From: Escherichia phage vB_EcoM_G53
Strand: one strand, 5' to 3'
Sequence record: MK327943.1
DNA length: 64,000 bases
The notes beneath the pieces were generated by a model, which worked only from the letters and a program-made list of their open reading frames with translations, was not told the DNA's origin and did not search any database. The first letter of the stretch is position 1; every line of letters begins with the position of its first letter. Below are positions 12,731 to 52,135 of the stretch, piece by piece. Position numbers and translations under genes: made by a program.

Positions 12731-12854
12731 AGAAAAAGTTCCCGTACATTGATGCAACAAAAAGCCATTGAGAAGGATACTCAAGGCCCATTAGACGAAC
12801 CGCATCGTTTACTGCTTCTTGTAATGCGTAGAACACATATCCGTAAAAATTCAT
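12731..12854 (-). CDS. Small hydrophobic ORF (41 aa) translationally coupled to gene 49
   Basis: ATG overlaps the gene 49 stop (ATGA); SD GAGGAAA 9 nt upstream; MNFYGYVFYALQEAVNDAVRLMGLEYPSQWLFVASMYGNFF. Confidence 0.4.
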
Positions 12855-13324
12855 TTAAGCGATTTCCTCAGTTGTTTTTTAAATGACGTTACCATTTTAG
12901 CTTTGGTATCGTCTTCATTATAACTAAAACCGTTTGAAAGCATTTCTGCAATCATTTCTTCTTTAGCTAATCTTGAGAACTCTTTAGTTTTGTCCGGAAC
13001 AAAATTAGGATGGATGTTATTAGCAGAATAATCTTGTTTCAAATAAGCAAGAAGAGCTTCAAGCCATTCGAGGTAGTCGACATCACGACCTTTAAGACCA
13101 GAACGGTTGAACTTATGCTTCATTTGACCTTCTGCTGCGTTGCACAGATTACAGAGTAACCCACGAACTCTACCTGCTTTTGGCCCGTTTAATTCGTGGT
13201 CGTGGTCAAGATGGTTACCTTGAACATCAGGGTCTAATTCACGGTGGCAAATAGGACACTTACCGTTCTGTGCATCATAAAATTTTTGTTTTTCTTCTTT
13301 GTATAATTTGCCAGATAATAACAT
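12851..13324 (-). CDS. 49: Endonuclease VII (Holliday junction resolvase) gp49
   Basis: 157 aa MLLSGKLYKEEKQKFYDAQNGKCPICHRELDPDVQGNHLDHDHELNGPKAG... closely matches T4 endonuclease VII. Confidence 0.93.
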   Translation of the reverse strand: MLLSGKLYKEEKQKFYDAQNGKCPICHRELDPDVQGNHLDHDHELNGPKAGRVRGLLCNLCNAAEGQMKHKFNRSGLKGRDVDYLEWLEALLAYLKQDYSANNIHPNFVPDKTKEFSRLAKEEMIAEMLSNGFSYNEDDTKAKMVTSFKKQLRKSLK

Positions 13325-13363
13325 AATAAACCCTTACCATATATAGATAAGGGTATTTATAAT

Positions 13364-13543
13364 TTAGTAAACGTTATAAAAGTCTCGATGAAAACGTTTA
13401 TACTGTCGAATCATTCTTTTAGTAGGACGTGTTACCGAAATGATTGAAGTCCTCATGTTTGGATTGTTTGGAGCCCCAATCATAATAAATTTCCAGGATT
13501 TTTGGCCGTTTGTTCTTTCGCCATAAAATAGTTCAGTTTTCAT
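13364..13543 (-). CDS. Small basic protein (59 aa), paralog of 13968-14138
   Basis: SD AAAGG; ...SIISVTRPTKRMIRQYKRFHRDFYNVY shares its C-terminal motif with the neighbouring small ORF. Confidence 0.45.
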   Translation of the reverse strand: MKTELFYGERTNGQKSWKFIMIGAPNNPNMRTSIISVTRPTKRMIRQYKRFHRDFYNVY

Positions 13544-13552
13544 AATAAACCT

Positions 13553-13966
13553 TTAACTTAAACGTCTTTCTAAATATTCAACGTATTCCGCTGCGGCTTG
13601 CATCAGATTACCTTCATAACCGTCATTATTTTCTTGGGCGGCTAATTTAGCTAAAGCATAAGAAATACGTTCACCTTCGAATTCGCCAAGTCCACCATCA
13701 CAAACTACTTGGTCAATTTCTTCGAGTTCATCTATTGAATGGGATTCCCAGAAGCACCAAAGAGAAGTATCACGGTCATAGATGCAAAGTTTCTCACCTG
13801 TGTTCAACATCACTTCAATAATGCCATGGTCGCCATAACCATCTTCGGTAGTAGTACCAATTACCTTGATGATCGTATCTTTCTTTAATTCAGGAAACTT
13901 GACTTGTAGTTCTTCATCTTCTTTAACAATCTTGAACCATTTACCGCGAGTTTCAGAAATATTCAT
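13553..13966 (-). CDS. Hypothetical acidic protein
   Basis: 137 aa from MNISETRGKWFKIVKEDEEL; the upstream part of the track ORF overlaps the small paralog gene. Confidence 0.5.
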   Translation of the reverse strand: MNISETRGKWFKIVKEDEELQVKFPELKKDTIIKVIGTTTEDGYGDHGIIEVMLNTGEKLCIYDRDTSLWCFWESHSIDELEEIDQVVCDGGLGEFEGERISYALAKLAAQENNDGYEGNLMQAAAEYVEYLERRLS

Positions 13967-13967
13967 A

Positions 13968-14138
13968 TCAATATTCTCTATAAAAGTTACGATGAGAACG
14001 TTTAGCTTTGCGAAGCTGACGTTTAGTAGGACGAACTGTAAACGGTTGTCCAGAGAAAAAATTCGGATCGGTTTTAATAAGCAAATACCAATCATGCTTG
14101 CCATTTTTTAATAAACGGTACAATAATTTAACTTGCAT
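13968..14138 (-). CDS. Small basic protein (56 aa), paralog of 13364-13543
   Basis: MQVKLLYRLLKNGKHDWYLLIKTDPNFFSGQPFTVRPTKRQLRKAKRSHRNFYREY; early-type promoter GTTTACA-17-TATGAT lies just upstream. Confidence 0.45.
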   Translation of the reverse strand: MQVKLLYRLLKNGKHDWYLLIKTDPNFFSGQPFTVRPTKRQLRKAKRSHRNFYREY

Positions 14139-14266
14139 AATAATCTCTTCCCATCTCCATATCAATTAATTCATTTATTGAAGGTTCATCATAACACGTT
14201 TCTTCGTCGTTGTAAACTGTTTCGACGTCCGGCTCGACTGTCTCCCATCGAGCCGAATACCATGGC

Positions 14267-14623
14267 TTAACCCCGGAGTTTATTGAGCTCTTCATAATCA
14301 ATCCAGGATTCTAGCCCTGACGGCAGGTCACATTCAATGTTCCACAGAAGCTCTTCAATGGCTTGCAGGCGATTATATTCTTCAACGGTAATGGTAACCA
14401 TTGGTGCAACCGGTTCTGCCTTTTTAACCATCATGTCGTTCATCAGGACGTAAAGGTCATCACGAACGACAGTGTCGTTCCATCCCCATGATTTGGCTTC
14501 GTAAGCTAATGATGAAGGGAGCACATTTAAAACTTCAATAATAGTTGGAGCATCAGGACCAAGTTCATTGGCACAAACTTCGTATACATCTTGGAAATCT
14601 TTAAGATTTAATGAATATGTCAT
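14267..14623 (-). CDS. Hypothetical acidic protein
   Basis: 118-aa ORF. Confidence 0.5.
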   Translation of the reverse strand: MTYSLNLKDFQDVYEVCANELGPDAPTIIEVLNVLPSSLAYEAKSWGWNDTVVRDDLYVLMNDMMVKKAEPVAPMVTITVEEYNRLQAIEELLWNIECDLPSGLESWIDYEELNKLRG

Positions 14624-14641
14624 TTAAAATTTTCTCGCAGG

Positions 14642-14938
14642 TTATTGTTCTACCCATGAACAAGAGACTTCAAAATCAGGACCACCGTATTCCCAGTGAT
14701 ATTCACCAACAGGAATCCAGTCACCGTGCTCGTTTTCTTCATAGTCCTCAGGCTCAAGGCCAACGAATCGCCATTGGACACCGATGATTCGATTACCCAT
14801 CATTACTCGAAATTCGCCCCATGGATTATCGATAGCATACTGAATATCGTTCTTGGCACGAGAGCACATTTCTTGATATAATAAAGCTTCTAATTCACCC
14901 TTGTCATAAGGACCAGGGAAAGTTAAATCAATACTCAT
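14642..14938 (-). CDS. Hypothetical acidic protein
   Basis: 98-aa ORF, Trp/Glu-rich. Confidence 0.5.
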   Translation of the reverse strand: MSIDLTFPGPYDKGELEALLYQEMCSRAKNDIQYAIDNPWGEFRVMMGNRIIGVQWRFVGLEPEDYEENEHGDWIPVGEYHWEYGGPDFEVSCSWVEQ

Positions 14939-15198
14939 TTAAAATATTCTCGTAGTTGGTCAAATCCACCAATGTGACTTCCGTCAGGAGCAAACACCTG
15001 AGGCATAGTCAATCCAACTTGTGATTCACGTCCAAGCTTAACCAGAAGCTCAGTAATTTTCTCATCATCGAACACACCTTTTTCCGGCATAACATTAATG
15101 AATTCGAATGGTTGTTTCTTAACAGTCAGCAATCGTTTCGCATTATCACAATAAATGCATTTATGAATAGTAGAGTCATACCCGTACACTTTAAACAT
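14935..15198 (-). CDS. nrdC: Glutaredoxin/thioredoxin NrdC
   Basis: 87 aa MFKVYGYDSTIHKCIYCDNAKRLLTVKKQPFEFINVMPEKGVFDDEK... closely matches T4 NrdC; start at the ATG with SD AAAGGAAAAATA. Confidence 0.92.
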   Translation of the reverse strand: MFKVYGYDSTIHKCIYCDNAKRLLTVKKQPFEFINVMPEKGVFDDEKITELLVKLGRESQVGLTMPQVFAPDGSHIGGFDQLREYFK

Positions 15199-15604
15199 TA
15201 TTTTTCCTTTCATCGATTAAATATGCAATGCCAAATACAATACATGTAATAAAACCTGTGATACAGATAGAAACCAACAATACTGTACCAAAGAACCAAA
15301 TCAAGTTATCTTTGGTAGTTTGTTTGATATCCATCTCACGAATTTCTATAGCTATCGTATCACCTTTATTCAGAAGCGTATAAAACGATGGCGATACACG
15401 CCTGTCAAAAACTCGTCCTTGCTCATCTTTATAGACTGCAATAAATTCTAATTTAGAATATTTTCCTGTAGATTGGCCTGAGATTAATTCCACTACCTCC
15501 ACAGGAATTACTTTAGTTTCCATGTAAGTATTCTGGCTGTTCCAAATGAATGGAATAATAGCAAAAACTAAAGCTGCGATAAAACAACGAAGGCTATATC
15601 TCAT
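15191..15604 (-). CDS. Hypothetical membrane protein
   Basis: 137 aa with hydrophobic helices at both ends. Confidence 0.55.
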   Translation of the reverse strand: MRYSLRCFIAALVFAIIPFIWNSQNTYMETKVIPVEVVELISGQSTGKYSKLEFIAVYKDEQGRVFDRRVSPSFYTLLNKGDTIAIEIREMDIKQTTKDNLIWFFGTVLLVSICITGFITCIVFGIAYLIDERKNNV

Positions 15605-50161: not shown

Positions 50162-52135
50162 ATGGCAAACACTCCTGTAAATTATCAATTAACACGAACA
50201 GCGAATGCTATTCCCGAGATTTTTATCGGGGGCACATTTGCCGAAATCAAACAGAACATTATTGAATGGCTCAATGGGCAGAATGAATTTCTTGATTATG
50301 ATTTTGAAGGTTCACGCTTAAACGTATTGTGCGACCTTTTAGCATATAACACTCTTTACATCCAACAGTTCAGTAATAGTGCAGTGTATGAAAGTTTTAT
50401 GCGTACTGCAAACTTGCGTAGTTCTGTTGTACAAGCGGCTCAAGATAACGGATATCTGCCTTCATCTAAATCAGCAGCACAAACAGAAATTATGCTCACA
50501 TGTACGGATGCATTAAATAGAAACTATATCACCATTCCACGTGGCACTCGTTTCTTAGCATACGCTAAAGATACTTCTGTTAACCCGTATAACTTTGTTT
50601 CTACCGAAGATGTCATTGTAGTTAAAGACAAAAATAACCAATATTTCCCGCGTCTTAGATTAGCTCAAGGGCGTATTGTTCGCACTGAATTAACATTTGA
50701 TAGATTAAAACCTATCATTATTCGTGATAAGAATATTGACCGTAATTTGGTTAAGTTGTATGTTGACGGAGCAGAATGGATTAACTGGACTCGTAAGTCG
50801 ATGGTTCACGCTGGTTCTACGTCAACAATCTATTATATGCGTGAAACAGTTGATGGGAACACCGAATTTTATTTTGGTGAAGGCGAAATCTCTATTAACA
50901 CGTCAGAAGGTGCGTTAACATCTAACTATATTGGTGGCCTTAAACCTGTTCAGGGTTCTAAAATCGTAATTGAGTATATTTCTACTAATGGCGCAGATGC
51001 TAACGGTGCTGTAGGATTTTCTTATGCTGATACATTAGCTAATATCACTGTAATCGATATTAATGAGAACCCTAGCAATAACCCGGACTTTGTCGGGGCC
51101 GATGGTGGTGGTGACCCTGAAGATATTGAACGTATCCGCGAATTAGGCACAATTAAACGCGAAACTCAACAACGTTGTGTAACCGCTTCCGACTATGACA
51201 CATTCGTCTCTGAGCGGTTTGGTTCTATTATTCAAGCGGTTCAAACATTCACAGATTCATCTAAACCAGGGTACGCATATATTGCTGCTAAGCCTAAATC
51301 TGGATTGTATTTGACTTCTGTCCAACGCGATGATATCAAAAACTATTTGAATGATTATAACTTAGGGACTATTACACCTGTTGTTATTTCGCCTGATTAT
51401 TTGTTTATCAAAATGAATATCAAAGTTACATACGCGTTGAATAAACTCCAAGAATCAGAACAATATCTTGAAGGGCAAATTATTAATAAAATTGACCGAT
51501 ATTATATTGAAGATGTAGAAATTTTTAACTCATCGTTTGCAAAATCTAAAATGCTAACTTATGTCGATGATGCAGATATTTCTATTATTGGTTCTTCAGC
51601 TACTATTCAAATGGTTCGCGAAGTACAAAACTTCTATAAAACGCCTGAGGCCGGTATTAAATACAATAATCAGATTAAAGATAGATCGATGGAATCTAAT
51701 ATATTCTCGTTTGATTCGCACAGACCTAATCCAGAAAATGCAAACGAAACTATTAAATATGGTGTTCGCATAGTATCTTCTGACCGTAATGACCGTGGCA
51801 TAGGTCAAGTTATTATTGGTCCATTTGCAGACGGTGATGTTGTTGAAAACGAAAATATACAACCTTATACAGGTAATGATTTTAATAAACTTACTGTTAC
51901 TGACGGACGAAACAAATACTATTCAATTGGTGAAGTGAATTATCCTGCCGATTCGATTTATTGGAACATTGCTAAAATTGACCTCACTTCAGACCGTTTT
52001 GAAGTTCAAACAATTGAACTTTATTCCGACCCTGCAGATGATATTATTTTTACAAAGGATGGTTCTTTAATCGTATTCGAAAATGACTTACGTCCTCAGT
52101 ACTTAACTATAGATTTGGAGCCTATTTCACAATGA
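50162..52135 (+). CDS. 6: Baseplate wedge protein gp6
   Basis: 657 aa from MANTPVNYQLTRTANAIPEIFIGGTF with SD AGGAATTAAA. Confidence 0.9.
   Translation: MANTPVNYQLTRTANAIPEIFIGGTFAEIKQNIIEWLNGQNEFLDYDFEGSRLNVLCDLLAYNTLYIQQFSNSAVYESFMRTANLRSSVVQAAQDNGYLPSSKSAAQTEIMLTCTDALNRNYITIPRGTRFLAYAKDTSVNPYNFVSTEDVIVVKDKNNQYFPRLRLAQGRIVRTELTFDRLKPIIIRDKNIDRNLVKLYVDGAEWINWTRKSMVHAGSTSTIYYMRETVDGNTEFYFGEGEISINTSEGALTSNYIGGLKPVQGSKIVIEYISTNGADANGAVGFSYADTLANITVIDINENPSNNPDFVGADGGGDPEDIERIRELGTIKRETQQRCVTASDYDTFVSERFGSIIQAVQTFTDSSKPGYAYIAAKPKSGLYLTSVQRDDIKNYLNDYNLGTITPVVISPDYLFIKMNIKVTYALNKLQESEQYLEGQIINKIDRYYIEDVEIFNSSFAKSKMLTYVDDADISIIGSSATIQMVREVQNFYKTPEAGIKYNNQIKDRSMESNIFSFDSHRPNPENANETIKYGVRIVSSDRNDRGIGQVIIGPFADGDVVENENIQPYTGNDFNKLTVTDGRNKYYSIGEVNYPADSIYWNIAKIDLTSDRFEVQTIELYSDPADDIIFTKDGSLIVFENDLRPQYLTIDLEPISQ

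Follow-up and report, generated by a model that had tools for sequence, protein, structure and literature searches.

A pair of DUF7279 paralogues flanking the Lon-inhibitor gene pin in a T-even phage, and rearrangements at their tail-coding repeats

Two DUF7279 paralogues on either side of pin

We analysed a stretch of 64,000 nucleotides (nt) from Escherichia phage vB_EcoM_G53 (MK327943.1; “the window”), with a focus on two small genes, p1 and p2, which encode proteins of 59 and 56 amino acids (aa), both below 60 aa when counted from the ATG, and which lie on either side of pin, the gene for a PinA-type inhibitor of the host Lon protease. The original prediction, made from the letters of the window, was that two paralogous open reading frames (ORFs) for small basic proteins at 13364-13543 and 13968-14138 flank a larger gene; the coordinates, which refer to the minus strand, and the arrangement both proved right, with the 137-aa pin (PF10465) as the gene in between. 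The pairwise alignment proposed at the time as a check revealed homology over the full length of the two proteins, with 22 of 59 positions identical in BLASTP (37%, expectation value (E) 1e-11), and in a six-frame tblastn search of the window p1 and p2 were each other's sole significant match (E ~6e-9). The two proteins are diverged paralogues of one small-protein family.

Identity is 62% (13/21) over the C-terminal 21 residues and ~24% over the N-terminal 38, as counted on the BLASTP alignment. The tail pattern common to both is RPTKR..R..KR.HR.FY..Y, and the identities outside the tail are M1, L5, Y7, G13, W17, P28 and N29. The shared motif had been described essentially correctly, but its spacing after RPTKR was one residue off, and its NG.K.W element is exact in p1 (NGQKSW) while p2 reads NGKHDW. 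No third paralogue was found in the window with either tblastn or an extended family hidden Markov model (HMM), the next matches having E values of 0.03 or worse. Two weak matches, at 51671-51718 and 50311-50343, run antisense within a 676-aa baseplate gp6-like ORF and were dismissed as chance.

Both proteins belong to the Pfam family PF23945 (DUF7279), with scores of 53.1 bits for p1 and 54.5 bits for p2 against a gathering cutoff of 24.5 and with nearly all of the 53-position model covered in each case. They likewise belong to the PHROG family phrog_3272 (p1, E 3.8e-30, residues 1-59 of 59; p2, E 5.8e-27, residues 1-56 against 1-59). Both also lie where our own positional definition places members of the family, namely in the nrdC-to-49 gene run and adjoining pin and/or gene 49.

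The region 12800-15300 of the window is a 98% match to RB69-like T-even phages (the Mosigvirus WFbE185, and also JK45 and others). Every gene of the locus is carried by the minus strand, in the order nrdC, 49.3-like gene, 118-aa ORF, 49.1-like gene, p2, pin, p1 and 49 (Table 1). In T4, the nrdC-to-49 gene run is transcribed early.

Table 1. Positions of genes, repeats and signals around p1 and p2 in the window, listed in the direction of the minus strand.
Feature	Position	Strand	Remarks
nrdC	15213-14935	minus	
49.3-like gene	14938-14642	minus	
118-aa ORF	14623-14267	minus	
49.1-like gene	14295-14128	minus	phrog_2382 (E 1.5e-28) and relatives' annotation; 11-nt overlap with p2 start
Promoter-like site, GTTTACA-17-TATGAT, TG-extended	14216-14188	minus	~50 nt upstream of p2; sigma-70/T4-early-like, 10/12 match
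p2 (DUF7279, 56 aa)	13968-14138	minus	between 49.1-like gene and pin
Tail-coding direct repeat, copy 2	13979-14033		within p2; spacing 604 from copy 1
pin (PinA-type inhibitor of host Lon protease, 137 aa)	13553-13966	minus	PF10465, phrog_2167
p1 (DUF7279, 59 aa; equivalent to RB69ORF087c)	13364-13543	minus	immediately upstream of gene 49
Tail-coding direct repeat, copy 1	13375-13429		p1 codons ~39-56; 55 nt, 76% identical to copy 2
Late-promoter box and hairpin	13361-13330	minus	directly past p1 stop
Gene 49 (endonuclease VII)	13324-12851	minus	endonuclease VII annotated in relatives' records

A single base separates the stop codon of p2 from the start codon of pin (TGA-T-ATG). By sequence, the window Pin is placed in the Inhibitor_I24 family (PF10465, 158.3 bits against a cutoff of 27, residues 7-137, E 1.4e-46); its alignment with Pin of T4 and RB32 stops at ...EYLERRLS, and it is without the C-terminal tail of T4 PinA. 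The program-made ORF list contains a 183-aa ORF at 13553-14104 (minus), which is pin read from an upstream in-frame ATG and which runs into p2 in a different frame; in relatives the annotated form is the one of 137 aa, with its start at 13966. The 118-aa ORF looks like two small genes fused. Over residues 64-118 it matches phrog_3402 (“antitoxin from a toxin-antitoxin system”, E 1e-32), and the same part has a weak match to the Pfam family of the T7 gp5.9 RecBCD inhibitor (E 0.015); its N-terminal half matches other PHROGs, and its C-terminal module is a separate gene of ~55 aa in RB32 and S16.

Distribution, selection and expression signals

Copies identical to p1 or p2 are labelled hypothetical protein in many relatives; p1 is annotated with 100% identity in WFbE185 and JK45, and its RB69 orthologue, RB69ORF087c, is 90% identical. 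As members of an already catalogued Pfam DUF that are annotated as hypothetical in many T-even genomes, the two genes change little as gene calls. At 80% identity or more, tblastn recovered p2-type genes from 145 phage records and p1-type genes from 54, and a few hundred records of Tequatrovirus and Dhakavirus contain a more distant p1-like form with 50-62% identity (RB32ORF078c, JS98 orf76). The DUF7279 family as a whole was detected by tblastn in 363-409 phage records, whose names are almost all those of Escherichia, Shigella, Yersinia and Salmonella phages, and all DUF7279-carrying records examined are T-even. HMMER, run exhaustively against 1.84 billion cluster representatives, yielded two clusters only at E <=0.001, word-indexed searches yielded 2 and 9 proteins, all of them DUF7279, and IMG/VR contributed three loci, one of which is a match to a Pin tail.

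Structure-based and HMM searches added divergent members from two further phages: Merlin79 of Citrobacter phage Merlin (Moonvirus), which lies between pin and gene 49, and gp48.1 and gp48.2 of Salmonella phage S16 (Gelderlandvirus), two copies in the same nrdC-to-49 gene run. The family thus appears, from its occurrence in sequence records, to be specific to T-even-type phages (Tevenvirinae). Placement beside pin and/or gene 49 is kept in Mosigvirus, Tequatrovirus (RB32, BMB16), Dhakavirus (JS98) and Moonvirus (Merlin).

The S16 copies flank gp48.3, a 116-aa protein (phrog_13441) with a weakly FeoA-like N-terminus (L021:4063-4759, minus), so that at least two genera have DUF7279 genes in pairs around another gene. 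The pair brackets different cargo in the two cases, pin in Mosigvirus and gp48.3 in S16; gp48.3 was considered as a divergent Pin and rejected, as it has no BLASTP similarity to it, belongs to another PHROG and has no PF10465 match. In Dhakavirus JS98 (L005:1029-1504) the “pin” annotation is a 57-aa piece, followed by the unrelated 100-aa orf77 and then the DUF7279 gene, an arrangement that represents further remodelling of the same slot.

Searches of NCBIfam, PADLOC (none at E 1 or better) and Rfam gave no matches to p1 or p2, and neither protein is a member of an entry in the PADLOC catalogue of defence and anti-defence systems. A literature search under DUF7279, ORF087c and ORF078c recovered no paper on the family; the sole match to ORF087c concerns Aeromonas phage Aeh1 and is unrelated.

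Ratios of nonsynonymous to synonymous substitution (dN/dS) were 0.07-0.24 for pairs of p1-type orthologues where dS was computable (0.09-0.24 for p1 against RB32, BMB16 and ESCO10) and 0.07-0.11 for p2 against its most divergent orthologues (mar005P1, AV113). The codon families used for the conserved arginines differ between p1 and p2, AGA as compared to CGT. These values indicate that p1 and p2 are genuine protein-coding genes and that purifying selection acts on both. Conservation in related phages had been named as a further check, and both ORFs are kept in close relatives; a lack of conservation, which would have spoken against them, is therefore not what we find. Judging from gene content, both genes are nevertheless dispensable, because many close relatives are without one of them and T4 is without both.

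Plausible ribosome-binding sites precede both ORFs, as had been predicted: AAAGG 7 nt before the ATG of p1, and GGGAAGAG ahead of the ATG of p2. A longer box that combines ribosome-binding site and start, AAGG(G)TTTATTATG, occurs three times on the minus strand (13322-13341, 13541-13560 and 14136-14155; 80-85% identity), where it fronts gene 49, p1 and, more loosely, p2. One of the two genes had also been credited with an early-type promoter of its own. A consensus match does lie ~50 nt upstream of p2 (Table 1), inside the 49.1-like gene, and is a plausible candidate for an early promoter of p2. Its hexamers are kept in five Mosigviruses, a conservation that is confounded by the coding function of the same DNA. 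A second promoter-like site, at 14165-14137, was rejected as a p2 promoter since its -10 element overlaps the p2 ATG, and no promoter-like site was found upstream of p1.

Just after the p1 stop codon lies a T4-type late-promoter box, TATAAATA (13361-13354, minus), followed by a hairpin with a stem of 9 bp (13354-13330, minus; -12.8 kcal/mol, z -2.3) that gives a terminator-like match and whose 3' arm holds the Shine-Dalgarno sequence of gene 49. This late-promoter/hairpin element is kept in T4, RB32, p000v and phiE142, whichever gene, pin or DUF7279, precedes it. The same layout was reportedly described for T4 gene 49 by Barth and co-workers in 1988.

Rearrangements of the pin region in T-even phages

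The most conserved parts of p1 and p2 form a direct repeat on either side of pin (Table 1), and we compared the arrangement of this region among relatives. Three configurations were observed in Mosigvirus. The window, WFbE185 and JK45 have the order p2-pin-p1-49. In p000v and similar phages the order is p2-pin-49; p1 is cleanly gone and the pin stop codon abuts the late-promoter/hairpin element. In phiE142, ST0 and PTK there is no pin, and a single hybrid DUF7279 gene directly precedes gene 49. The same junction makes PHB12, a20, AV115, JM10/17, FL18 and others appear to be of this hybrid type as well.

The hybrid gene consists of p2 through ...HRNFY, followed by the last codons of p1 (NVY) and the DNA downstream of p1. 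Both the hybrid and the loss of pin in ST0 and phiE142 are thus accounted for by a crossover within ACTTTTATA, which is common to the two tail repeats, and in ST0 the recombinant is again an intact in-frame gene. An assembly artefact in the odd 121-kb record of phiE142 was considered for this junction and rejected, as the same junction is present in the 160-171-kb genomes of ST0, PHB12 and AV115. The 55-nt tail-coding repeats that flank pin evidently behave as recombination substrates, and a related event may have produced the in-frame graft of a tail onto Pin in T4-type phages.

Four configurations were distinguished in Tequatrovirus. In the first (A), BMB16 has a 148-aa pin ending in SFSDRAF*, a TAATG overlap, the DUF7279 gene and then gene 49; ime09 and HY03 are probably of the same type, since in a search with Pin ends they matched the tail-less end only. 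In the second (B), RB32 Pin carries 16 extra C-terminal residues, QMIRQYKRLHQMFYNT (L004:1414-1464), which are homologous to the DUF7279 tail at both the protein and the DNA level, and behind the fused tail 23 nt from the 3' end of pin are repeated without a mismatch, ahead of an intact DUF7279 gene. In the third (C), T4 has pin with the tail (161 aa) and no DUF7279 gene. In the fourth (D), LH2 and Sf22 have a 148-aa pin followed by merely the last 7-8 nt of the DUF7279 gene.

Residues 146-161 of T4 PinA, RMIQQYKRLHQMFYNT (L003:2898-2948, minus), are homologous to the C-terminal helix of DUF7279, and natural Pin proteins of 137-148 aa do not have such a tail. T4 PinA therefore looks chimeric, with its 16 C-terminal residues apparently derived from a neighbouring DUF7279 gene. 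The fused tail is present in 432 of the 507 records that have a Tequatrovirus-type Pin end. Among six Pin-fused tails, positions that are conserved in the family vary (R46Q, H52N, R53Q, Y56F) and most nucleotide differences are nonsynonymous by inspection, because of which the grafted tail appears to be under relaxed constraint and drifting.

The two copies of the 23-nt sequence in RB32 (L004:1391-1413 and 1467-1489) bracket the fused tail as perfect direct repeats of the 3'-terminal part of the pin core, a trace evidently left when arrangements of the T4 type and the BMB16 type underwent unequal exchange. The simplest history that we infer for these configurations is A to C to B to C. A microhomology-mediated deletion in a BMB16-type genome would have fused the Pin core in frame to the tail to give the T4 type, an unequal exchange between C and A at CTTGAAA would have given the RB32 type, and recombination between the two tail copies of B would have regenerated C. 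The last step is supported by Yersinia phage PST, in which the DNA coding for the Pin tail has the signature of the free gene.

What these comparisons add is the tail-repeat recombination that evidently deleted pin in ST0 and phiE142, the clean absence of p1 in p000v and the tail that is apparently fused to T4-type Pin. The natural recombinants at this locus, with deletion of pin or of p1, in-frame fusion and re-duplication, thereby form a series resolved at the sequence level, which illustrates how short coding repeats and microhomologies remodel the hyperplastic regions of T-even phages. Since T4 PinA is the form that has been studied biochemically, mapping of the PinA-Lon interface should take the probable chimeric origin of its last 16 residues into account.

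Predicted structure, possible functions and related systems

AlphaFold2 models were built on a 9-sequence alignment. The p1 model has strands at residues 2-9, 15-22 and 31-36 and a helix at 42-58 (mean predicted local distance difference test score (pLDDT) 86.9), and the p2 model has the same topology, with strands at 3-9, 15-24 and 27-33 and a helix at 39-55 (mean pLDDT 80.6). Each protein, of about 7 kDa, is thus predicted to consist of a three-stranded antiparallel sheet packed on a C-terminal amphipathic helix. Calculated sizes are 6-7 kDa, isoelectric points (pI) 10.75 and 10.82 and net charges +9 and +11 for p1 and p2, respectively. On a helical wheel, K42, R43, R46, K49, R50 and R53 fall in one 120-degree arc in both paralogues, preceded by R39-P-T, and I45, Y48, H52, F55 and Y56 are on the opposite face, where they are expected to pack on the sheet. 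Most positions of the basic stripe are invariant in the 9-sequence alignment, with R or K at position 43. In the divergent S16/Merlin subfamily K42, R46, K49, R/K50 and R53 stay basic, H52 is lost and the tail reads KKWARxYWLY.

The single likeliest mechanism, which we put forward tentatively, is that p1 and p2 are accessory early factors that bind nucleic acid. The Lys/Arg stripe would be the working surface and would bind a polyanion, most likely RNA or DNA and less likely an acidic host protein, and the proteins may act early in infection as accessory factors in host takeover or counter-defence. The original prediction had suggested nucleic-acid-binding peptides. The binding is compatible with the pI of ~10.8, the charges of +9 and +11 and the basic helix face, but nothing ties the proteins to a known nucleic-acid-binding domain, and the models predict small folded proteins rather than unstructured peptides. 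Foldseek gave no informative match in the PDB (E >0.6), and p1 and p2 have no significant sequence or structure similarity to dsRBD, PUR, chromo/Sso7d-like, CsrA or ribosomal proteins. A sequence profile search of the PDB returned only a β-hairpin likeness of “LY..NGK.KWK” to designed propeller (“Bagel”) proteins, which we judged meaningless. Should the basic-helix proteins of this family prove to bind RNA, DNA or Lon, the list of small early factors in host takeover would grow by one.

The same physicochemical features would also suit a small factor for anti-defence or host shutoff, whose basic helix would dock on the negative surface of an acidic protein of the host or of a defence system. 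The company of p1 and p2 is of an accessory or counter-defence type, comprising pin and the ORF whose C-terminal half matches an “antitoxin” PHROG, and their patchy presence among close relatives is typical of accessory genes for host range and defence. PADLOC and NCBIfam provided no match and no structural analogue can be named, however, nor does any of the evidence point to a particular target, and we regard this reading as rather unlikely, if ahead of those that follow.

A role in the Lon system is suggested by the genomic context, since DUF7279 genes flank pin in Mosigvirus and adjoin it in Tequatrovirus and Moonvirus, and the in-frame fusion of the tail to Pin in 432 phage records is a hint of the Rosetta-stone type. 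The helix would in that case mimic the C-terminal degron of SulA, p1 and p2 would be additional Lon modulators or Pin partners, and the T4 module would have been fused to PinA; the tail motifs HRNFY, HRDFY and HQMFY do resemble ...KIHSNLYH of Sul20, the SulA degron peptide. The resemblance covers five residues and was noticed post hoc, however, and degron mimicry failed in a family-wide comparison: the histidine is not conserved (KKWARxYWLY in the S16/Merlin subfamily), the Pin-fused tails drift at family-conserved residues, and the motif sits in what is predicted to be a packed helix, where F55 and Y56 belong to the buried face, as compared to the disordered C-terminus of Sul20. In addition, pin occurs without a tail or a neighbouring DUF7279 gene (LH2, Sf22) and DUF7279 without pin (ST0, phiE142, S16). 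We consider a Lon module of this kind improbable.

We attach similarly little weight to a combined scheme in which the DUF7279 pair would correspond, in protein-coding form, to the PeSL cassettes (intergenic units with an early promoter and a stem-loop terminator) of T4-type phages. The genes would bracket a cargo slot, recombination between their tails would drop, swap or fuse the cargo, and the tail would be a portable basic helix that confers targeting to RNA or to Lon, with T4 PinA as the example.

It is very doubtful that p1-type proteins act in cis on gene 49, by binding the hairpin over its ribosome-binding site or by opening it through their translation and thus tuning early endonuclease VII. 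In the examples examined from Tequatro-, Mosig- and Dhakavirus, ~10 nt separate the end of the p1-type gene from the hairpin, and the Merlin member lies within ~35 nt of gene 49; a ribosome terminating on a p1-type gene would reach the 5' arm of the hairpin, and arginine-rich helices are classic binders of RNA hairpins. But no such hairpin follows p2, the hairpin is kept without the p1 gene in T4, LH2 and p000v, and the spacing is equally explained by the need for the late-promoter box TATAAATA at this place. Equally slight is the chance that the ORFs have no protein function and persist in a hyperplastic region as DNA-level homology arms or shuffling leftovers, much like PeSL cassettes in coding form. 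Rearrangements through the tails are demonstrated, the S16 pair flanks a different, non-Pin cargo gene and loss is frequent, but amino-acid-level purifying selection with saturated synonymous sites, full-length conservation in four genera with the family domain in a fifth (S16 gp48.2), the divergence of p1 and p2 to 37% identity, the intact frame of the ST0 recombinant and the confident fold prediction all speak against it.

We compared the nucleic-acid-binding candidates p1 and p2 with known systems. From the other members of DUF7279/phrog_3272 (RB69ORF087c, RB32ORF078c, JS98 orf76, S16 gp48.1) they show no material difference; size and place beside pin and gene 49 are the same, and G13, W17, RPTK and the basic-helix residues are shared. 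The T4 PinA tail is homologous to the C-terminal helix of DUF7279 and likewise directly precedes the late promoter and hairpin of gene 49; it differs in being appended to a Pin core without its β-sheet partner and in substitutions at family-conserved positions. Arginine-rich-motif RNA-binding helices of the lambda N and HIV Rev/Tat type are usually unstructured until bound and have no β-sheet scaffold. They resemble p1 and p2 as short helices with a dense periodic Arg/Lys face, but there is no homology, and p1 and p2 are predicted to have a sheet.

In Sul20, the C-terminal Lon degron of SulA, the terminal Tyr-His contact the Lon N-domain (PMC8087443). DUF7279 is alike in having H-x-(N/D)-(L/F)-Y near the C-terminus and in its genomic link to a Lon inhibitor. 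Whereas Sul20 is disordered, with Tyr-His at its end, the DUF7279 motif is predicted to be helical and partly buried (block-mean pLDDT 76-92, aromatics on the packed face), with a histidine that is not family-conserved, so that p1 and p2 would not qualify as degrons of the Sul20 type.

In the PeSL cassettes of T4-type phages, according to two reports, short repeats in hyperplastic regions mediate the gain, loss and swapping of the genes that they flank (PMC2839356, Arbiol et al., 2010; PMC4122927, Comeau et al., 2014). PeSL is described there as an intergenic promoter-terminator unit; the p1/p2 repeats (13375-13429 and 13979-14033) are instead protein-coding and under amino-acid selection, and they are not PeSL cassettes, as the promoter-like site and the stem-loop lie outside the repeat, the former upstream of one copy only and the latter downstream of the other only. 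In its short repeats flanking a variable gene, PeSL as described in these sources nonetheless provides the closest functional analogy for the behaviour of the DNA at this locus.

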